A DNA stretch of 37,056 nucleotides from positions 1 through 37,056 of IMG/VR virus record IMGVR_UViG_3300037784_000028. One strand, 5' to 3'. The stretch comes from a virus. Its lineage: Duplodnaviria > Caudoviricetes. Under the pieces are notes generated by a model. It searched no databases. It saw only the letters and a list, made by a program, of their open reading frames with translations, and had not been told where the DNA came from. The translations under genes and the position numbers were made by a program. Numbering within the stretch: the stretch's first letter is position 1; each line of letters starts with the position of its first letter. Positions 3,913 through 36,730 of this stretch are shown piece by piece.

Positions 3913-4289
3913 CCAGCGAGCAGACAGAGCGGATGAGTGAGGCGGAGATTGAACAGCACTGCCATGAGTTGTCTCGGTGGTACGACGAAACCGGAAAGGT
4001 TTCACTGAGGATCATCATGCAGTACCAATCCGACCTCGCCGAAGCCCGCGAGCAGTTGGAGGAGGCGAGGGAGGGGTTGGAGTTCTATGTACACCAAGGG
4101 GACATGGGAGAGCGTGCTCGAACCATCCTCTCCCGCCTCTCGCCCAGCACGAAGGGTGCGGGGGGAGGTGAGTGCCCTGAGTGCGGGAGTCACCCGTCCA
4201 TTGACGGGGGCAAGTGCGAAGCTTGTTACAAGGATGCTATTTGTTTGGCAAGGCGGGCGTCGCTGGCCGGTGAGGACAACCATGACTAA
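3909..4289 (+). CDS. Hypothetical protein, coiled coil plus CPECG...CEAC Zn finger
   Basis: ATGA overlaps; Cys pairs. Confidence 0.65.
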   Translation: MTSEQTERMSEAEIEQHCHELSRWYDETGKVSLRIIMQYQSDLAEAREQLEEAREGLEFYVHQGDMGERARTILSRLSPSTKGAGGGECPECGSHPSIDGGKCEACYKDAICLARRASLAGEDNHD

Positions 4290-6510: not shown

Positions 6511-7668
6511 GCAACCAAACTGCCGATCTAGCTGGTCTTGAGCGAACGCATTCAACGCCGGATCAGTCGGAATCGGGCCGGGCCTGCCAGCATCGTACCC
6601 CGCGCACTGCGGGCACTGGCGATACAGCGGGTTCGCGCAACGCGGGTCATTCGGCACCAAGCCCGCACACAGGTTCCCGCTCGACGGGCACGCCTGGGTG
6701 GACCACGTAGCCCCTACAGGTGGGTCGCTCGAGACAGCCGACACCGGGACGTACCGATCACCGCCCCAGAGCAGCGTAACGCCGTCCTGCGGGCGTAGGT
6801 CAGGGTCGTAGGTAATCGTCGCCGTCCCATCGCACAGACGCGCCACAGGCCATTCGGGGGCACCACCGCACACGTCCTGTACCCAGTCCACCGCAACGGG
6901 CGTACCGCTCGCTCTGGACACAAGGCGGTAGCTCTCGCCCTGATAGCGGATGCCGGTGAATCCGTTGGACGTGGCCTGATCGACGATGATGGTCTGGGCG
7001 GGGTCATCGCACTTGGCGGCGAGCATGAGATCGGGGGTGTTCTGGTTGCAGTTGGTATCGAACTGGGCCTCTACGATGAGCTGGCCGGTCTGGGAGACAA
7101 TGCCGCTCGCGCAGGGCTGGTCGCCCAGATCGTTATCCAGCGTCACAGGCCCGTTATCGAGGAACAGGCCCTGATTGAAGGTTCGGCGCCAAAGGAACAC
7201 GAGGCCGCCCGTACCCGACGACGTGGTAATGTCATACGACGACCCGCCCCCCACCACGTCGATGCGGGCCTCTCTGATGATCGGGCGGTTATCGCGGCAC
7301 CCGAGGGTGTAGTCGAAATGGAAGGTGGTATCGGTCCCGTACACGCCGCCTTGACCGACAAACGAGACAAGCCCCTTGAACGGGAGATTCAGGGCGCTTG
7401 ATTGGATGCCCGCTGTGGGCAATGGCCCATCCACGAGCAAATCAACCAGCTCGGCCTCGATGCTTCCGCCCCCGTCCGAGATTCGGATATCACACGACGA
7501 CGGCGTGAACCCCACCGCCGACGCGCGGAAGCAGAACCCGAGCACGCCGGGGCAGGGCGGATCGCCCCCGCCACCATCGCAACAGCACGGCGCACCGTTG
7601 GCAGTGGTGAGCACACGCCCACCCTGCACGACTACGCGACCGTCCTTGACGAGGATGTGGGTCATCAA
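6493..7668 (-). CDS. Cys-rich putative tail-tip/fibre protein with two tandem ~55-aa repeats
   Basis: Last gene of the structural arm; PCCCD at the N-terminus, GCSGCGG at the C-terminus. Confidence 0.6.
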   Translation of the reverse strand: MMTHILVKDGRVVVQGGRVLTTANGAPCCCDGGGGDPPCPGVLGFCFRASAVGFTPSSCDIRISDGGGSIEAELVDLLVDGPLPTAGIQSSALNLPFKGLVSFVGQGGVYGTDTTFHFDYTLGCRDNRPIIREARIDVVGGGSSYDITTSSGTGGLVFLWRRTFNQGLFLDNGPVTLDNDLGDQPCASGIVSQTGQLIVEAQFDTNCNQNTPDLMLAAKCDDPAQTIIVDQATSNGFTGIRYQGESYRLVSRASGTPVAVDWVQDVCGGAPEWPVARLCDGTATITYDPDLRPQDGVTLLWGGDRYVPVSAVSSDPPVGATWSTQACPSSGNLCAGLVPNDPRCANPLYRQCPQCAGYDAGRPGPIPTDPALNAFAQDQLDRQFGCSGCGG

Positions 7669-14833: not shown

Positions 14834-16369
14834 TTAGTCCTTGAGTGCGATGACCTCGGAGGAAGTGCCCCCGACATCGTGGAAGTTGAAGTCGATACGC
14901 TCGGAGGCCATCCATGCAACCTCGTCGGTATCCCAGTAACGCTGGTCGGTGTACTTGAGGGCCTCGGAGCCGCTCACCACACCGAACTTGGAGCCGCGCC
15001 CACCGTCACCGATGTACGCAACCAACTGATCCGCCGAGTAGGTGCTGGGCAGGACTTCACTCAGGACGACAGGAATGCCGTCCCAGCCGTATCCGCCACC
15101 CATGCCGTCAAGCAGCGCACCGCCGACGTTGCCGCCTGCCGAGAGAGCGAAGCGACGGAGCACGGCCTGATAGAACGCGGTCGAACACGCGATCTTCACA
15201 GTGCCCTTCATCCATGCCTCTGCGGGAACCTTGGCGACCCACGCCTGGAGCTTGGGAATCGTGTAGTCTTCCCAGCCCGACGAAAGCGCCGCGTCGTAGG
15301 TAGAGTCGGAGTCCACGTTCCCAGCGAGACCGCCGTGGGTGCCGTGGCTCCCGAGGAAGTATTCCTGATCCTCGAACAGCGCCATGCCCGCTGCGGACGA
15401 CTGGGCAACCTCATTGCCAAGCTCGAACGCGGAATCGTTGAGCATCTCCATTGAGACGCGAGCGATACCCGCCGCCTTCTTCGCATCGAGGTGAACATTG
15501 TCGTATGCGGGGTTGGTCTCTGACGGAGCAGATCCCTCGCTCACATATGCAAAGCTCATGTTCGATGTCTTGCGCTTGGTGTCGTAAGAGCCGTCAGGCA
15601 TGCTCGTGATCGGGCAGAACTGGCGAGCAGCGCCATAAGTGTGCAGAAGGTCGATGATCTGCGGGGCAGTCTCCGAGACGATGAGCGTGCCCGCCCATGC
15701 GTTGTCGGTGGTCACCCCGGTTGCCTTGGTGCCGATGATCGAGCAGTCGTTGCGGTACTGATCTCGGCTGTACGGAACGCCGTGACCACCCTTTGAGATC
15801 ATCAGGCGAGCCGCTGAACCGAAATACTCCGCCTCGTCCGCAGACCCAAAGACGACCCGCTTGCCCCGATACAGCGTGCCGTTCTTGGCCGCGTTATCGA
15901 ACGCCTTGCGTCGTGCCCGCTCTGCGCTGACGTGTACAGCCGGTGCACCCTTGGTGCTCGCCTCGTGGATCGACTTCATGAACGTGGGTTCTTTGATCCC
16001 GAGTTCACGAGTCAGCTTCTGGAGCTGCTTGTACTTCTTGGACTTGGCCTTGCCTTCGTCCTCGTCCTCGTCAAGCTCCTTGGTTTCCTCGTCCTCTGGG
16101 TCGGCCTCAGCCGTGCCCATGCCGTCGTCAACCACGACTTCCTCGCCAGCGTCGGCGATAACACGCACGGTCTTACGGCCCCAAGCCGCCTTCACCGCCG
16201 CCTCGTCAACCTCGCCGTCCTTCACAAGGTCGGGAATGTCGTAGCGCTCCGCGACCGTCTTGACGAACGCAACCGCGTCGTCAGCCGAATCGCCCTCAAA
16301 GTCTCGAATGTTCAGGTCTTTCGCCCACGCCTTGAAGTTGTGGCGCAGGTTCTTTTGGTTCCACCCCAT
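14834..16369 (-). CDS. Major capsid protein, HK97 fold, with a long N-terminal (scaffold/delta-like) region
   Basis: YVSEG..PSE, VHLDAKK...VSMEMLNDS and GIPVV motifs; AAAGGAG RBS before ATG 16369. Confidence 0.92.
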   Translation of the reverse strand: MGWNQKNLRHNFKAWAKDLNIRDFEGDSADDAVAFVKTVAERYDIPDLVKDGEVDEAAVKAAWGRKTVRVIADAGEEVVVDDGMGTAEADPEDEETKELDEDEDEGKAKSKKYKQLQKLTRELGIKEPTFMKSIHEASTKGAPAVHVSAERARRKAFDNAAKNGTLYRGKRVVFGSADEAEYFGSAARLMISKGGHGVPYSRDQYRNDCSIIGTKATGVTTDNAWAGTLIVSETAPQIIDLLHTYGAARQFCPITSMPDGSYDTKRKTSNMSFAYVSEGSAPSETNPAYDNVHLDAKKAAGIARVSMEMLNDSAFELGNEVAQSSAAGMALFEDQEYFLGSHGTHGGLAGNVDSDSTYDAALSSGWEDYTIPKLQAWVAKVPAEAWMKGTVKIACSTAFYQAVLRRFALSAGGNVGGALLDGMGGGYGWDGIPVVLSEVLPSTYSADQLVAYIGDGGRGSKFGVVSGSEALKYTDQRYWDTDEVAWMASERIDFNFHDVGGTSSEVIALKD

Positions 16370-16717
16370 CGCATAGCTCCTTTGGGAAGTGGTTTCCATG
16401 GGAAAACACAACCGTCCGGGCAACGCGTTTGGAATCTGGGGCCTTCGGTGCTGGCCTGCACTTCGGGCGCGATCATCCGCAGGGGAAGCCGTTCAGTTTG
16501 ACAAACCGAAGCGACGCTGTGAGCGACGATTCGGGGTGTGGCCTCTAGGTCTCCATTTATTCCCCGGCTTGGGAGACTCCACGCGTGCCGGGCAAGATGT
16601 TCCCGATGTCAGGGCCACTGGGGAACCAACGCTTTGTGGCCTTTCGGCCAATCGGCTACGCCCCTCCACAGACCGCAGCCGCGTGAGTTCGATGAACCAA
16701 GCACGAACCCCATCAGT
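16370..16717 (-). ncRNA. Predicted structured 5' leader RNA of the capsid gene
   Basis: About 8 stems, G-U pairs on the - strand, GAAA tetraloop; lies between a promoter and the MCP RBS. Confidence 0.55.
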
Positions 16718-16723
16718 TGCCGT

Positions 16724-16752
16724 ATTGTCCCCGAACCCTCTTGTGGTGTCAA
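16724..16752 (-). promoter_or_regulatory. Sigma70-like promoter for the capsid/tail operon
   Basis: TTGACA-N17-GACAAT on the - strand. Confidence 0.65.
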
Positions 16753-16834
16753 CAGGATTTATGCAATATCTTGTGTGCATAAGCGAGATTTATGACGCGA
16801 GACCGGCAAACCACCAGGTTCAGGGGTGAGACGC

Positions 16835-16882: not shown

Positions 16883-17167
16883 ATGAACACCGCACTTGAC
16901 ACCAAGCCCGAGGTCACGGTCACGCAGTCTGACCAGTTGTATTTCGACGTTGGCCTGACCATGACCCGCATCAAGGCGAGAGACCCTGATCGGGGCTGGT
17001 ACACCATCACGCACCAGCCCGGCACACTGACCAACGCAGGCTTATCTGAGGCGATGAGCCGGTATAACTTCGCACACCGGATCGCATGGGGCCTCCCGGC
17101 ACTCAGGCGTGTTCGGCTGGACACGATGGGACGAGTCGTGCCCACCCCCATTGCGGATCGGGTATGA
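16883..17167 (+). CDS. Hypothetical protein (antisense moron, leaderless)
   Basis: TATGAT 6 nt before the ATG. Confidence 0.6.
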   Translation: MNTALDTKPEVTVTQSDQLYFDVGLTMTRIKARDPDRGWYTITHQPGTLTNAGLSEAMSRYNFAHRIAWGLPALRRVRLDTMGRVVPTPIADRV

Positions 17168-17173
17168 TGGGGT

Positions 17174-17497
17174 ATGGTCAACTTCCTCAACAGTCTCACG
17201 CAGCAATCGGTCTGCTGGTACATCAGCGTCAACGACCACAAGTCCATCTACATGGACCTTGAGCGGTACCTAGATCAATCCCAAGACTTTGAGTGGTGCG
17301 ACGACGGGGCACGTGAGCGGTGTATCGAAAAGGACGTGCTAGTCACGCTAAGGGTCTACCCCACAACGCCGGTAGGGTTCGTCGAGATCGCGGGCGATAC
17401 GCTGGAGGCAGTTTGCGCGGCGATGCAATCCGCCCTCACCCCACCGACCCTCACTCATAAACCTTCACCACAGACCGACGCGGAGCAGGCGAACTGA
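17174..17497 (+). CDS. Hypothetical protein (antisense moron; YPTTPVGF motif)
   Basis: TATGAT 5 nt before the ATG; protein-like composition. Confidence 0.7.
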   Translation: MVNFLNSLTQQSVCWYISVNDHKSIYMDLERYLDQSQDFEWCDDGARERCIEKDVLVTLRVYPTTPVGFVEIAGDTLEAVCAAMQSALTPPTLTHKPSPQTDAEQAN

Positions 17498-22204: not shown

Positions 22205-22616
22205 CGCCCTCCCCGCCGGGTCGCTCAATCGTGATCTTCAACGGTGCACCACCCGCCCCGGAATGCTCAAGCTTCTGGAGATCGCCGTAGACCTTGGGCT
22301 TGGTCACACCCGCCAGCCAGCGCAGATTCTGGGACGCTTCCTTGAGGCCCTGGACTCGCGTGATGCTGTCCGCCGTCTCGAAATCATCGCAGTAGGCGAG
22401 CATCCGGTCTGCGTAGGAATCCGCAGCGTCCTCGCGTGCACGTGCATAACGGGCGCGAAACGCCTCATTTTCCCCTCTCCACCGCCTGATCGTTTCCTTG
22501 TCAGGCATGTCGGCATCACGGCAAATACGTCGCAGCGACTCCCCATCCGCGATGCGTGTGCAGATCACTTCTGCGAGTTCATCCGTGTATTTTGATGGCC
22601 TGCCTACTTTAGCCAT
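22197..22616 (-). CDS. terS: Terminase small subunit (Sf6-like)
   Basis: GRPSKYTDELAEVICTRIADGESLRRIC...PKVYGD. Confidence 0.9.
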   Translation of the reverse strand: MAKVGRPSKYTDELAEVICTRIADGESLRRICRDADMPDKETIRRWRGENEAFRARYARAREDAADSYADRMLAYCDDFETADSITRVQGLKEASQNLRWLAGVTKPKVYGDLQKLEHSGAGGAPLKITIERPGGEGDD

Positions 22617-22663
22617 TGCTAACCCTTAAAAACTGCGATTAGAATCCGTCCATGTTCCGTATT

Positions 22664-27420: not shown

Positions 27421-27456
27421 AAAAACCCCGCCCCCCGAAAGGTAAAGGGGCGGGGC
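27421..27456 (-). terminator. Intrinsic terminator-like hairpin
   Basis: - strand ccccgcccc...ggggcgggg-TTTTT. Confidence 0.65.
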
Positions 27457-27665: not shown

Positions 27666-28256
27666 TCAGGTCGTTTGCTTGATCTTCTTGACGGCCTTCT
27701 GAGTCTTGACGCTCATCGACTTGCGGAGGTCGTTGCCGCCGTCGCCGTCGATCGCGGCGCGGATCGCGGGGCTGGACTGGATAGACGTCACGATGTCCTC
27801 AGTGACCGACTCGGCTGATTTCTGCTTGCGACGGAACACGCCAGCGAGCAGGCCGGTAAGCACGGTCGAGCCGCCAAGCAATGCCTCGGCAACCCCGATG
27901 CCGCCAACCAGCGTGTTTTCCCATGCGTCCGCGTCACGATCGGCTTGCGTCCGCCAGTCGTCGGCGAGGTCTTCCATGAGTGCCGCAACGTCACGGGCAG
28001 CACCGGGCGCATCCTCTGCCACTTCCAGCACCCGCGCCGCTTCGTCGGCGAGCGATTCAGGGACGTACACACGCAACGCCTCAATCAGGTCGGCGTGATC
28101 CACCGTGCCCTGCTCAACACGTTCGGCAACTTGTCGGACTTGGTTCGCGCCACGATCCAGCTTGTCCGCGTTCTCACGGAGCCGGGCAGACGAACACCCG
28201 GCAAGCACAAGGATCATGGAAATCAGGAGGACGCCAAGCAGGATGCGTGATCGCAT
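27666..28256 (-). CDS. Lipoprotein with helical body and C-terminal hydrophobic segment (u-spanin-like architecture)
   Basis: MRSR-hydrophobic-LAGC lipobox; GGSTVLTGLLAGVF-RRKQK. Confidence 0.6.
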   Translation of the reverse strand: MRSRILLGVLLISMILVLAGCSSARLRENADKLDRGANQVRQVAERVEQGTVDHADLIEALRVYVPESLADEAARVLEVAEDAPGAARDVAALMEDLADDWRTQADRDADAWENTLVGGIGVAEALLGGSTVLTGLLAGVFRRKQKSAESVTEDIVTSIQSSPAIRAAIDGDGGNDLRKSMSVKTQKAVKKIKQTT

Positions 28257-28513
28257 GGGATAAACCCTTCCTCAGAGAAAGGGTTCGTGCTTGGTGCCCG
28301 TAGTATACCCGTTCGTGTTCTACATGGAACACAGAAACCTGACTTTTTCCAGACTTTTTACCAGCCCTGATGATTCGTGATGAATCGATTCACCAAAGGT
28401 GATTCAAAGATGAATCGCGCCCCCGGCCACAACTTTCCCCACCTACCCATTCCCCACAAATTTGTGCGAAATTACACAACCTTGACCCAGACAAGTCGTA
28501 TACCACCCTGATT
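28257..28513. promoter_or_regulatory. Divergent control region
   Basis: Lower GC; - strand TATACT at 28302-28307; palindrome at 28316-28331; GATTC/GAATC repeats at 28371-28417. Confidence 0.65.
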
Positions 28514-30052
28514 ATGTATGAGCGGCGCATGATTCAGGCCGCCAACCATGATGCAGGGGCAGGGGAAACACACACACCGATACCTATCAGCAGCTACGCG
28601 GATCTACGCGCACCTACAGAGGAGCAACCATCCGTCCGCATCTATGTGAGGCAGGGGGAGCAACCACCCAAAGTGGTGTGCGATGGGGCTGTAACTGTAG
28701 AAATCATATTGACTTGCGGGGACAGGGGCGGTACGGTGGCCCCGATGGAAGTTCAGCAATCCCAGCCCGTTCGGTGGGATGAGGTTCTTCGAGAGTGGGA
28801 GCGGGACGCGTCTGTCCAGCAGCTCGGAAAGGATCACACCACCCGCGTACCCCGCATGGTCGGGCGGATGTGCATCGCCCTCGGGATCGAGACAGTGGAC
28901 GAACTCGACCGATCGAAGATGCGGGGCTATCTGGCGGGCCTGTCAGAGTCCGGGGTGAAGGGTGAGCCGCTGTCGCCCAAGACGATGCGGAACTACATCA
29001 CGGCCTTCAATCGGTTCTTTGAGTGGTGCAGGCAGGCGGAGATGGCCCCCGCGTCGTGGGCGAACCCCTGTGACGGTATCCGGCTTCCACGGCTTCAGGA
29101 CAACCCCAAGCGGGCGTTCACGCAGGATGAGGTTCTTGCCGTGTTCCGCGCGGCGATGCTCGATGAGACGCACGAACGCCCGGCGTTCACGTCCGGGGAC
29201 GGCCTGCCCAAGATGCGGTCTGGCCTGTACTGGCTCATGGCGTGCACAGGGCTACGGGTGGGCATCGCGGAGCAACTGCGGGTCCGGCACCTGACGCTGA
29301 TCGGCACGGCCCCGTGCGTGCACGTTCCGGCCACGGGGACGGGCAAGGAACGCAAGGCCAGGACGATCGCGATCTCGCAGCTCGACGCGCAGATATTGCG
29401 TGAGTTTCTGGCGCGACACCCACGCAAGCCCGGCACCGATGACCGCCCGTTCGATCGCCCGCACCCGCGCGTGTTCTACGCGGACCTTGAGGCGGGCGGC
29501 GTTTCCGTGCAGGACGGGTCGGGCCGGTGGCTTGGATTTCACAGTTTCCGCCGATTCCACGCGACCCAGCTTTTGCGGATGAAGGTAGACCCGAAGCTTG
29601 TGCAGAAGCGTTTGGGGCACAGGAGTTTAGAGACGACGACGAAGCATTATCGGGACATCGAGCACGAGGAGCACGCGGGGGTGGCGCGTGAGTTGGGCGA
29701 GAGTTTTTCTGCAAAAATGGAGACAAGCCCCTTGACTGGACAGGGGCTGATAGCCGATACTGATAACGCAAGCTCGCTACCAGCGATTGATAACTCAGAG
29801 ACCCACGCCAAGAAGTGCGGCGTTGATTCGGGCCCAGTGAGCTTGCATTCCCTGCCCGGATCCGCCGCGCCTACTGGCGGCTTGCCGCGTTCCGGTGAGA
29901 CGGTCTCGGGGATTCAGAATGTCGAAGTGGAGGACAGGGGACTCGAACCCCTAGCCCGAAACGAGCGGCATTCTAGGCCAGAGGACGGGCTTCTTGTTGA
30001 AGCCGCCGTAACTCTGGCGCGAATCCTCGATCGTCTCAGCGAGCGCCGCTGA
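28514..30052 (+). CDS. int: Tyrosine integrase (start 28514 or, more likely, 28745) with a long C-terminal extension containing attP
   Basis: TGLR, K, FHSFRR and LGH...TTKHY catalytic motifs; LSPKTMRNY...NP core-binding region. Confidence 0.93.
   Translation: MYERRMIQAANHDAGAGETHTPIPISSYADLRAPTEEQPSVRIYVRQGEQPPKVVCDGAVTVEIILTCGDRGGTVAPMEVQQSQPVRWDEVLREWERDASVQQLGKDHTTRVPRMVGRMCIALGIETVDELDRSKMRGYLAGLSESGVKGEPLSPKTMRNYITAFNRFFEWCRQAEMAPASWANPCDGIRLPRLQDNPKRAFTQDEVLAVFRAAMLDETHERPAFTSGDGLPKMRSGLYWLMACTGLRVGIAEQLRVRHLTLIGTAPCVHVPATGTGKERKARTIAISQLDAQILREFLARHPRKPGTDDRPFDRPHPRVFYADLEAGGVSVQDGSGRWLGFHSFRRFHATQLLRMKVDPKLVQKRLGHRSLETTTKHYRDIEHEEHAGVARELGESFSAKMETSPLTGQGLIADTDNASSLPAIDNSETHAKKCGVDSGPVSLHSLPGSAAPTGGLPRSGETVSGIQNVEVEDRGLEPLARNERHSRPEDGLLVEAAVTLARILDRLSERR
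28709..28737 (+). promoter_or_regulatory. Predicted promoter for a leaderless integrase mRNA
   Basis: TTGACT-N17-TACGGT, 7 nt before ATG 28745. Confidence 0.5.
29726..29761 (+). promoter_or_regulatory. Predicted early promoter inside int with an overlapping inverted repeat
   Basis: TTGACT(29732)-N18-GATACT; AGCCCCT-N9-AGGGGCT. Confidence 0.45.
29927..29952 (-). other. attP core: 3' end (T-arm plus acceptor strand) of tRNA-Ala or tmRNA
   Basis: - strand AGGGG-TTCGAGT-CCCCT-GTCCTCC-A-C; U70 and A73 alanine identity; no anticodon or D arm upstream. Confidence 0.85.
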
Positions 30053-30062
30053 GGAATGAGGA

Positions 30063-30365
30063 ATGTCGGAAGTTCAGATCAAGTTTCAGCAGGACGCGCC
30101 GGAATCGAAGCCGGTGAAGACCTACACGGGCAGTGTGAGCGAGTGGCCCAAAGGCGTCTACCGGAGCAGTAACCAAAGGCATCTGCTTGTCAAATCCGCA
30201 AGCGACAGCGAGGGGGCGGCTTACTTTTTCAGTGGTCGCGTTTCTTGTATCTATTCCGTGACGTGTGAATACATCCGCGTCTCCGACAACCCCTGCATCG
30301 ACTCCATGACCTTCGCCGGTTCGATGAACTACCCCGACGGCAAGCCGGAAGGGGGGCAGGCGTGA
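30063..30365 (+). CDS. Hypothetical protein
   Basis: GAGGA RBS. Confidence 0.65.
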   Translation: MSEVQIKFQQDAPESKPVKTYTGSVSEWPKGVYRSSNQRHLLVKSASDSEGAAYFFSGRVSCIYSVTCEYIRVSDNPCIDSMTFAGSMNYPDGKPEGGQA

Positions 30366-30658
30366 TGGCGAACATACAAGCCGACCATCTGTATCTCGAC
30401 AAAAACGGCGACTATGTAAAGCCGGGCGATGTTGTGCTTTACGACGACAACGGCAAAGAAGTCGAGTGCGTAGTTCTTTCCGAAGACTATCACTCGATAG
30501 ACATGGAACACATTCTGGAAGCGTCGTCTGTCCACTGTAAGCGGTGTGACGGCGATCCTGTCTTTGTCTGCTTGTGCGACTGCTCTGCGGTGCCTTCATC
30601 AGGCCACCACCGCTTCCACCCGCCTCACGACGGCAAGCCGGAAGGGGGTGCGATGTGA
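30365..30658 (+). CDS. Hypothetical protein (YopX-like DKNG..VKPGDVV motif; Cys-rich)
   Basis: TGATG coupling; flanked by a 21-bp direct repeat. Confidence 0.6.
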   Translation: MANIQADHLYLDKNGDYVKPGDVVLYDDNGKEVECVVLSEDYHSIDMEHILEASSVHCKRCDGDPVFVCLCDCSAVPSSGHHRFHPPHDGKPEGGAM

Positions 30659-30891
30659 GTCACCCCCTCTCAGAAATCATCACCCGTCGCCTAGACGAGA
30701 TCGCCCTAAGCAACCCGACCGACCTCAAGGTGGGCGATTGGATTCAGTGGAGCGGTCCCGGTAACCCTACACAGGTATGGAAGGTGGACAAAGCCGCCAA
30801 TCGTTTCTGGGCCTCTGACTTAGGCGGCTATGCAACTATGGATGGTCACGGCTACACCGTCGTCCCCGCACCAAAGGGGGTGGCCTCATGA
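30655..30891 (+). CDS. Hypothetical protein (DLKVGD, SH3-like)
   Basis: GTGA overlap; 29-bp repeat at its start. Confidence 0.6.
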   Translation: MSHPLSEIITRRLDEIALSNPTDLKVGDWIQWSGPGNPTQVWKVDKAANRFWASDLGGYATMDGHGYTVVPAPKGVAS

Positions 30892-31277
30892 GTCACCCCC
30901 TCTCAGAAATCATCACCGCCAAACTCAACGGCGACGACCCGCACGCCCGCACGACGATTCCGAATGGGCTGGCGGTGGAGATACGGGATGAGTTGAATCG
31001 GCTGTCCCGTTATACGAGCGTGACCGCTGATGGAGTCCGCGTGTATCTAGGTAGGCAGGTGTGGCTACCTGTTGACGTTAACGGAATACGTATCGCTCGT
31101 GAGTTGCAGGTTGGTGAGGACGGCGAGGCGCTTCACTGCAAGTTACTGGACTGCGACGACACTTGGGATTATGCAGAAGCTGTTGTAATGGCGTGCCTCG
31201 TGAGCGACACCTACGCATCGAAAGATGCTGCCCTGTCTGCTGAATCGTCGTATGACACGAAGGCGGTGACCTCATGA
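30888..31277 (+). CDS. Hypothetical protein (TADGV..YLG..VW)
   Basis: ATGA overlap. Confidence 0.65.
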   Translation: MSHPLSEIITAKLNGDDPHARTTIPNGLAVEIRDELNRLSRYTSVTADGVRVYLGRQVWLPVDVNGIRIARELQVGEDGEALHCKLLDCDDTWDYAEAVVMACLVSDTYASKDAALSAESSYDTKAVTS

Positions 31278-32683: not shown

Positions 32684-32690
32684 CCCATTC

Positions 32691-32970
32691 CGCTCCGGTG
32701 AGTAAGCCGGGCGAACCCCCGGCGCGGTGAACCCCCGCCGCGTCGGATTTCTTGTGCGTTGAACTGTTTCCACCGTTCAGGTCTGACGCACAGTGCCCCG
32801 CGTTGGGGCACGAACCAAGCCGCGAGCGCGTTCCTCATTCCTCCGCTCGCGTACCCCTCGCCCCGTCCTACCGGGCCGGGCAGGGATTCCGTGCTGCACG
32901 TTGATTGCACTCACGCAGCACACCGGCGCGTTGCCGGAAGCCCGCTCCCGATGAGATGCGGGGGCGGGGG
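32691..32970 (+). ncRNA. Array of about 9 consecutive hairpins (putative structured RNA)
   Basis: Back-to-back inverted repeats with G-U pairs on the + strand; no credible CDS. Confidence 0.6.
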
Positions 32971-32986
32971 TTGAAAGGAGATACGA

Positions 32987-36141: not shown

Positions 36142-36419
36142 GAGTCGCCACCACAAAGGGCGGACGCCCACGCAAGGAACACACAGACGTCCCCAAGGGC
36201 CACAACTACCCCAAGGGCACCACGCACGTTACGAGCAACGCACGCGACTGGCACAAGGCGTGCAACCCGCCTGCGAAGGTGAAGTACGCGCGGACGGACA
36301 CGATGCGGTATTTCCGTCGCGTTCGTGAACAGGACATCGGACACAAGCAGGCAACCCGCTGGTTGCCGGTGACAGCCGCTCATGTTGAGGCGGCGGGAAG
36401 GGAAGGGTGGTACAGGTGA
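36138..36419 (+). CDS. Hypothetical basic protein
   Basis: GGAG RBS; ATGA overlap. Confidence 0.55.
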   Translation: MRVATTKGGRPRKEHTDVPKGHNYPKGTTHVTSNARDWHKACNPPAKVKYARTDTMRYFRRVREQDIGHKQATRWLPVTAAHVEAAGREGWYR

Positions 36420-36730
36420 AGGACAGATGGACACAGTGTATCTCTGAGGCGTTTGAGGACGCCGGTATTAAGGCGACCGACCAGCAGATTGATGTCGTCG
36501 CCGCATGGGCAGAGAGCGAGAGCGAACATGGACACATTTCCAGTGGGCAAAGCTGTATCCCCAGCCCGCTTGAGTCAGAGAATGAACGACTCAAGAGGCA
36601 GCTCAAAGCCGAGAGGGAGAAGGTGGAATGCCCCGCGTGCCGTGGCGAAGGTCGGATCATCACGTATGGGGTTCGCTCAGGCAATATGCACTGCACCAAG
36701 TGTAACGGTGAGGGAAGGGTGTCGCCATGA
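36416..36730 (+). CDS. Protein with DnaJ-type CxxCxGxG zinc-finger repeats
   Basis: CPACRGEG and CTKCNGEG. Confidence 0.7.
   Translation: MKDRWTQCISEAFEDAGIKATDQQIDVVAAWAESESEHGHISSGQSCIPSPLESENERLKRQLKAEREKVECPACRGEGRIITYGVRSGNMHCTKCNGEGRVSP

Follow-up and report, generated by a model that had tools for sequence, protein, structure and literature searches.

The delay of lysis-type proteins in temperate phages is usually explained by proteins, such as antiterminators and antiholins. Among engineered RNAs, the synthetic toehold switch carries a stably unpaired 5' toehold and has its SD in the hairpin loop. Among natural ones, DsrA reportedly activates rpoS as a trans-acting RNA with an anti-antisense mode of action, and the c4 RNA of phages P1 and P7 is said to be an antisense RNA comparable with P4 CI. 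Further systems are summarized here from excerpts of the papers cited. StxS, a processed and Hfq-bound RNA of 74 nt, is described as issuing from an always-active phage late promoter and as activating a host gene (PMC7547250). IsrK of the prophage Gifsy-1 binds a longer isoform of its own transcript, and the CI RNA of P4, processed from the transcript that it controls and located between its targets, represses (both as excerpted in PMC4825925). Sok is presented as cis-encoded, fully complementary and inhibitory (PMC4485353), and in Listeria the hly and prsA2 mRNAs pair with each other via a 3' UTR, which protects from RNase J1 (PMC8722363). A pair of late leaders of the kind considered below was not found in the literature searched, most subscription papers lying outside its scope.

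The window, that is the whole 37,056-nt stretch of viral DNA analyzed, is the record of a complete temperate tailed phage of 36.9 kb with terminal repeats; half or more of the phage's words were present in three of the six listed runs, from pond metagenomes. On the minus strand, reading down from position 28256, are found the lipoprotein gene, four small ORFs (two of which encode a hydrophobic segment), a protein of 266 aa with an Atlas model similar to putative glycoside hydrolases (TM 0.65-0.69), a 1019-aa Ig-domain protein, the terminases, the portal, the protease, two opposite-strand genes, the capsid gene and the tail genes, whereas the plus strand carries the integrase, early genes and replication genes. 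The two opposite-strand genes (16883-17497, plus strand) are absent from the close relatives L005, L026 and L135, and more distant relatives have other inserts between protease and capsid. No match to a repressor family was found among the 70 ORFs scanned; a zinc-finger ORF lies at 36407-36730 and a late CXXC protein is present. The capsid scan of GTDB returned distant capsids only (19-32% identity), and the viral contigs scanned with the capsid as a single protein gave no match. The positions of the features discussed are collected in table 1.

Table 1. Features bearing on the two late leaders and the early element (positions in the window unless L141 is named).
Feature	Position	Strand	Remarks
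196-aa phage lipoprotein	27666..28256	-	Residues 18-21, lipobox; residues 120-138, second hydrophobic stretch; body helical
-10-like box of lipoprotein promoter	28302..28307	-	-35 weak; predicted +1 at 28295
Lipoprotein leader, +1..+15	28281..28295	-	9-nt 5' tail and first 6 nt of anti-SD arm
SD-sequestering hairpin	28262..28286	-	Predicted
Terminator-like hairpin and U-run	27431..27449	-	After lipoprotein gene and 60-aa gene
HK97-type major capsid protein	14834..16369	-	phrog_10, E 3.8e-27
Sigma-70-like capsid promoter	16724..16752	-	10/12 consensus; kept in four clade members; predicted +1 at 16717
Structured capsid leader (~350 nt)	16370..16717	-	Hairpins 1 and 2, then variable insert
Capsid leader, after the insert	near 16500	-	Hairpin and short U-run at this position, then twice-repeated motif before SD
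Capsid-leader hairpin 1	16685..16710	-	Fold kept in L005, L026, L135; loop variable
15-nt segment of capsid leader	16696..16710	-	5' arm and loop of hairpin 1; predicted +8..+22
Early element (~300 nt)	32690..32985	+	Non-coding, multi-hairpin, upstream of replication genes; z -4.35
Structural counterpart of first half of early element	L141 12425-12570		
Site A	32712..32719	+	Copy of lipoprotein anti-SD arm word, 5' of terminator-like hairpin
Site B	32808..32820	+	Hairpin arm and single-stranded linker; 9 nt complementary to capsid hairpin-1 loop

Further features of the layout were noted along the way. The C-terminal tail of the integrase gene contains a sigma-70-like promoter (29732-29761, plus strand) and an attP-like, reverse-complemented tRNA 3' half (29925-29953, plus strand), read by eye as tRNA-Ala, with a counterpart in the distant relative L141 (10988-11017); the promoter spacing leaves a residue footprint in seven of the eight homologues checked. 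Integration would sever this promoter from the early operon and alter the end of the integrase, and an integration-dependent, repressor-free switch is possible. Junctions of small early genes bear exact direct repeats of 29 nt (30656-30684 and 30889-30917) and 21 nt (30335-30355 and 30628-30648), which resemble modular gene shuffling. Another promoter-like site (22616-22645, plus strand), kept in L141 (4129-4158, plus strand), overlaps the start of the small terminase and is directed into the 1019-aa gene and the lipoprotein unit, antisense to them. Finally, the integrase-lipoprotein intergenic region holds spaced inverted pentamer repeats at 28359-28448, and in a variant contig (run X4, depth 4.7) 88 bases of this region are replaced by 18 others.

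The product of the first minus-strand gene belongs to a phage-type family (52 clusters at 50% identity, look-alikes 81-96% viral), and its lipobox Gly-Cys is invariant in all 12 aligned homologues. Its second hydrophobic stretch is borderline (1.58 and 1.71) and is followed by about 55 residues. The predicted structure is all-helical and of low confidence (pLDDT 53), and a fold search with this model gave nothing under E 0.001. The unimolecular spanin gp11 of T1 is described, in the excerpted account, as having a mainly beta periplasmic domain and as being encoded last in its lysis cassette (PMC6139136). An N-terminal lipoprotein signal is common to unimolecular spanins and the window lipoprotein, and the borderline second stretch recalls the C-terminal transmembrane domain of such spanins, but the window lipoprotein is modelled as helical and its gene comes first in its unit, unlike gp11 as excerpted there (PMC6139136). 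A role at the envelope, in lysis or in exclusion, is likely for this protein, and the label of lysis gene is plausible.

The first-pass annotation had reported a 15-mer shared, in inverse orientation, by the regions upstream of the lipoprotein and capsid genes. It is indeed present at 28281-28295 (plus strand) and, as its reverse complement, at 16696-16710 (minus strand), with no mismatch; no other exact inverted repeat of at least 15 nt exists in the genome, and a G-U pair lengthens this one to 16. The length by itself is uninformative, because Markov genomes (60 per order) are expected to contain 1.1, 1.3 or 1.65 inverted 15-mers each, and as good a complement exists somewhere for 12 of 500 random windows of 40 nt. 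What stands out is the position. With both transcription starts placed from sigma-70-like boxes, the match covers predicted positions +1 to +15 of the lipoprotein transcript and +8 to +22 of the capsid transcript, both on the minus strand, so that the two transcripts would carry complementary 5' ends, as had been proposed. In simulations, a 15-nt match between two non-coding stretches arose in 15 of 3000 cases, and a match of even 12 nt between the first 40 nt of the two leaders in 11 of 200,000; in both nulls, the stretches and start sites had been chosen after the match was seen. A 15-nt match at both leader starts is rare by chance. A second complement of 13 nt, between the capsid leader (16397-16409) and the lipoprotein coding region, was set aside: it does not exceed chance (26 inverted 13-mers), and one base of it is different in two relatives.

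On the lipoprotein side, folding supports the RBS-blocking hairpin of the earlier reading: 11 bp are predicted over the purine-rich SD of ORF 28256-27666 (-13.3 kcal/mol, z -2.9), the SD lying in the 3' arm of the stem and the loop being free of it. Opening this SD would cost 13.5 kcal/mol in the window and 14.6 kcal/mol in L141, though 2 of 21 other late genes have a higher modelled cost. The unpaired toehold that had also been described is predicted for the nascent leader, where its opening costs 0.1 kcal/mol at 42 nt and 2.4 kcal/mol at 60 nt, but it would be paired in cis once the mRNA exceeds about 60 nt: the modelled cost rises to 5.6-7.2 kcal/mol for mRNAs of 70-200 nt (2.6-3.2 kcal/mol in L141), because the tail pairs with codons 5-8. 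L141, whose lipoprotein and integrase are 41% and 60% identical to those of the window phage and whose gene order is the same, shares the 39-nt leader with its 5' ACCAA tail, and also the SD-locking hairpin, in which changes are compensatory. Both phages have the start codon at +40 and agree in all 12 nt around +1. In their alignment, all 18 hairpin cells are paired, with two double and two single compensations, against 44-72% pairing in slid controls; a shuffle control (111 of 500) was not significant, such a control being powerless with two sequences. The variant contig has one change in the lock hairpin, which the model keeps (13.1 kcal/mol), and none in the 28.3-kb 15-mer (40 of its 114 differences being listed for the long stretch). 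The leader is absent from L138 (lipoprotein 37% identical, different phage type) and L142 (integrase 43% identical), no whole-leader match was found among annotated phages, and 9 of 11 matches to the lipoprotein-promoter pattern are unrelated. A terminator-like element also directly follows the lipoprotein gene of L141; since both phages have one after this gene, the lipoprotein may be on its own short transcript. Separately, L141 contains, inside a hydrolase-like gene (7556-7574), an 18/19 same-strand copy of its lipoprotein leader (0 of 700 null windows), which may be another target site or may simply show that rare matches occur.

On the capsid side, the 15-mer varies in its letters among relatives while the fold is kept. 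Across L005, L026 and L135, which retain the promoter, both sides have changed in 5 of the 18 pairs of hairpins 1 and 2 (2 of the 6 in hairpin 1). The hairpin-1 loop holds UUGG, a motif of the YUNR type (as described in the excerpted PMC4485353), in the window, L005 and L003; this motif is absent from L026, L135, L017 and L018. In nascent leaders of up to 150 nt, the loop is predicted to be accessible at 0.5-1.3 kcal/mol. Three of the four capsid leaders have a hairpin with a short U-run at about +215. Rfam and ARAGORN searches gave nothing, and a peptide starting at an AUG at +5 was rejected by eye, there being no residue conservation. Other features of this leader deserve mention in their own right. 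A motif made of CCTG, five to seven bases and ATCG (window about 16425-16485, minus strand, 60-120 nt before the capsid start) occurs once or twice in 11 of the 15 leaders examined, down to 34% capsid identity (listed carriers: L005, L026, L135, L003, L007, L010, L011, L015, L017 and L018); close-clade leaders have two copies, one on either side of a hairpin whose loop is conserved. This motif, which is not in Rfam, is a candidate protein-binding RNA or DNA element. A palindrome with a 7-base spacer (16778-16794), upstream of the capsid -35 box and largely kept in L005, L026 and L135, is a candidate regulator site. L005 has a tRNA-like insert with D- and T-arm-like hairpins in the variable middle of its capsid leader (about 4050-4125), for which ARAGORN made no call.

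Pairing of the two leaders would comprise 15-16 pairs spanning the 5' tail and 6-7 nt of the anti-SD arm. In the folding models, the cognate capsid leader binds at -11 to -14 kcal/mol and lowers the cost of opening the lipoprotein SD from 13.5 to 5.7 kcal/mol (60-nt mRNA) or 7.8 kcal/mol (90-nt mRNA), while four non-cognate capsid leaders leave it at 9.2-13.5 kcal/mol. The net binding is unexceptional: 54 of 395 random windows of 90 nt, and 20 of 398 of 60 nt, equal it. Among about 2460 loci of the window, the capsid hairpin has the lipoprotein leader as its best target apart from itself, and site B ranks eighth. The toehold-switch reading of the first-pass annotation is thus feasible in folding models, with a lock conserved through compensatory changes in L141, but departs from the original picture in that the toehold is predicted not to be stably unpaired in the window phage and the SD to be only partly freed, the freed SD re-pairing weakly.

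Among the records searched, no second genome has both sites, which were found only in the window phage and its identical copies. We therefore compared leaders across phages. In an ungapped register, the L141 lipoprotein leader differs from that of the window at 6 of the first 16 positions; at these six, the window capsid leader forms one Watson-Crick pair with the L141 leader, L005 three, and L026 and L135 four each. Nulls with fixed positions gave 0.037, 0.045 and 0.045 for L005, L026 and L135 (0.004-0.007 with free positions), the three tests not being independent of each other. L135 is the sister of L141 (82-83% nucleotide identity, 84% amino acid identity for the portal); its capsid hairpin forms eight contiguous arm pairs with the L141 leader, followed in the loop by five consecutive mismatches, and its loop does not complement the toehold. 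In this cross-phage comparison, the compensatory changes sought in relatives run partly as pairing would predict (p about 0.04 each); the L135 loop, with its five mismatches, goes against it. The L141 leader pairs better than shuffles (p at most 0.05) with 5 of 15 capsid leaders, four of them from the close clade, the starts of the distant capsid leaders having been picked by eye. In a blind scan of the 25.5-kb L141 contig (about 1700 loci), this leader ranks 38th with the L005 hairpin, 203rd with that of the window, 383rd with that of L135, and beyond 600 with those of L026 and L003. The changes in hairpin 1 are also compensated inside hairpin 1, and the shared arm is anti-SD-like and favors G-rich complements. 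G009, a complete distant phage, has neither a lipoprotein nor a stand-out complement to its capsid leader.

A permuted partial copy of the 15-mer had been reported at 32808. It is present (32808-32820), but the better reading assigns it to a conserved early element distinct from the two leaders. The counterpart of the first half of this element in L141, matched by eye since automatic alignment was poor, has a terminator-like hairpin whose U-rich tail is the same, two further hairpins, the second of these with the same loop, and a linker. Immediately before the terminator-like hairpin stand GAACCC in the window and GACTCC in L141, which are hexamers of the anti-SD arm of each phage's own lipoprotein leader and complements of the window and L135 capsid arms, respectively. 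Word sharing between early element and lipoprotein leader amounts to 9 and 6 within the same phage, against 1 and 1 with the other phage, and ranks in the top 0.4% of 7279 windows for the window phage and 2.8% of 4996 for L141, the latter being the independent figure. The early element scores -21.0 with the capsid hairpin when cut at 32870 (0 of 244 nulls) and -13.8 over the whole 300 nt; site A ranks beyond 600 in the blind scan even in the window. We found no local promoter for the element. A further observation concerns one of its hairpin loops (32828-32843, plus strand), complementary to the SD and start codon (30051-30066, plus strand) of the gene that directly follows attP, over 13 Watson-Crick pairs, or 16 with two G-U pairs (modelled binding -14.3 kcal/mol); no counterpart was seen in L141, which lacks this gene.

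Taken together, these data lead us to consider a functional pairing of the two leaders somewhat probable, because two independent tests in the L141/L135 clade (p about 0.03 and 0.045) add to the positional rarity; what keeps it from standing higher is that the L135 loop mismatches, the tail pairs in cis and the blind ranks are weak. That the capsid leader activates the lipoprotein by anti-antisense pairing, with the early element as likely competitor, has in our view slightly less than an even chance; it is placed there because, given pairing, release of the lipoprotein SD is the only sizeable modelled effect. These gradings, like those that follow, are judgements and not computed values. As a trans-acting anti-antisense key, the 5' hairpin of the capsid transcript would capture, through its loop, the 5' tail of the lipoprotein mRNA before the tail pairs with codons 5-8; its arm would then push aside the anti-SD strand and so loosen a ribosome site that the models fold shut, whereupon translation of the lipoprotein would rise. 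Early in infection, the look-alike words of sites A and B may soak up the capsid hairpin, in which case lipoprotein synthesis would begin only when capsid transcripts outnumber early transcripts. Four parts of this proposal are inferred: where the two transcripts start, that loop and tail make the first contact, that translation rises, and that the early element soaks up the hairpin. A bolder version, which we consider unlikely, is a timer of three RNAs without protein regulator, in which the capsid leader would be the key, the lipoprotein leader the lock and the early RNA a co-evolving decoy, the capsid hairpin perhaps also serving as an immunity RNA. An envelope-breaking or entry-blocking lipoprotein would then be translated only when head-gene transcripts exceed early ones. 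More generally, late-leader pairing tuned by an early decoy would, if true, amount to a compact, RNA-only way of counting transcripts.

The main competitor of the activation reading is coincidence, in which each of two cis hairpins is conserved independently and their complementarity in the window phage is accidental, and the lock is opened by a protein (such as the product of the zinc-finger ORF), an RNase or a standby ribosome, or simply keeps expression low. The expectation of about one inverted 15-mer per genome, a match picked post hoc from many windows, the unexceptional net binding, the weak blind cross-phage ranks and the L135 loop mismatch are all consistent with it, as is the existence of the late CXXC protein; the 18/19 leader copy in a coding gene of L141 is equally striking and has no clear role. 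Chance accounts poorly, however, for a match that sits exactly at the transcript starts, for parallel changes at three separate loci and for word sharing in the early element that is cognate-only in both phages, and we judge coincidence somewhat unlikely. The alternative suggested by the first-pass annotation, in which a single regulator would recognize the 15-mer as an asymmetric DNA site close to each late promoter, agrees with the location of both copies just downstream of the predicted starts and could tolerate the direct orientation of the second copy in L141. It fits poorly with the rest of the data: the two copies in the window are oppositely oriented relative to transcription, there is no family of near-copies (three further sites at three mismatches versus 1.24 expected), and at no more than one mismatch the 15-mer was found, among 168 loci, only in identical copies of the window phage. 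Moreover, the segment varies in relatives while the RNA pairs stay, the conserved DNA features are the -35 region and the upstream palindrome, and the early copies are permuted fragments. A DNA site is thus highly improbable.

Pairing may also be real with its roles reversed, the capsid hairpin being the target, or with repression as its main job. Either the early element (in the manner of c4 or CI) or the lipoprotein 5' tail (in the manner of Sok) would bind the U-turn loop and hold down the capsid operon, or a short RNA from the capsid promoter in the lysogen, reminiscent of StxS, would bind site A and stop early transcription before the replication genes. A YUNR loop with single-stranded partners fits loop-linear antisense systems, the capsid promoter is near consensus in a phage in which the 70 ORFs scanned yielded no repressor, site A abuts the terminator-like hairpin in both phages, and the hairpin and U-run near +215 recur in most of the capsid leaders compared. 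Against this, pairing is predicted to barely alter access to the capsid SD (6.4 to 5.8 kcal/mol), and in the equilibrium model the early terminator forms with a probability of 0.99-1.0 with or without the capsid hairpin. The early element has no local promoter that we could find, and integration would cut its early promoter off from the operon. We regard these repressive variants as distinctly unlikely, and return to activation of the lipoprotein by the capsid leader for the comparison with known systems.

As with DsrA and StxS, a trans RNA would pair with the strand that masks a ribosome site; unlike StxS as excerpted, trigger and target would both be phage late leaders, with 15-16 contiguous pairs at the 5' end (PMC7547250). 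The likeness to IsrK is that a phage leader RNA would make a phage mRNA translatable in trans, but the window RNAs would come from promoters 11.6 kb apart and have no sequence or Rfam match to it, the comparison resting on the excerpts of PMC4825925. P4 CI and c4 resemble the present case in that a short segment of phage RNA has at least two complementary sites in the phage, one of which adjoins a terminator that precedes replication genes; they differ from it in that the complement in the window lies in another operon than sites A and B and the lipoprotein leader, and, for P4 CI, in that the clearest modelled effect in the window is activation. The Rfam families of P4 CI and c4 gave no meaningful match in the window (E at most 5) or in six related loci. 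In hok/Sok as excerpted, a single-stranded 5' tail meets a YUNR loop, as the tail would in the window, where however the two partners are unlinked and it is the putative target that provides the tail (PMC4485353). The hly-prsA2 pair shares with our proposal a full mRNA whose UTR pairs with the 5' end of another mRNA, coupling their expression; the present proposal differs from the excerpted account in running from 5' leader to 5' leader, in releasing an SD and in belonging to a phage (PMC8722363). Compared with the synthetic toehold switch, of which it would, if true, be a natural counterpart, the lipoprotein leader has the same order of a 5' tail followed by a hairpin, to be opened by strand displacement, but its SD is in the stem, its tail is only 9 nt long and re-pairs in cis, and its trigger would invade only 6-7 of the 11 stem pairs.
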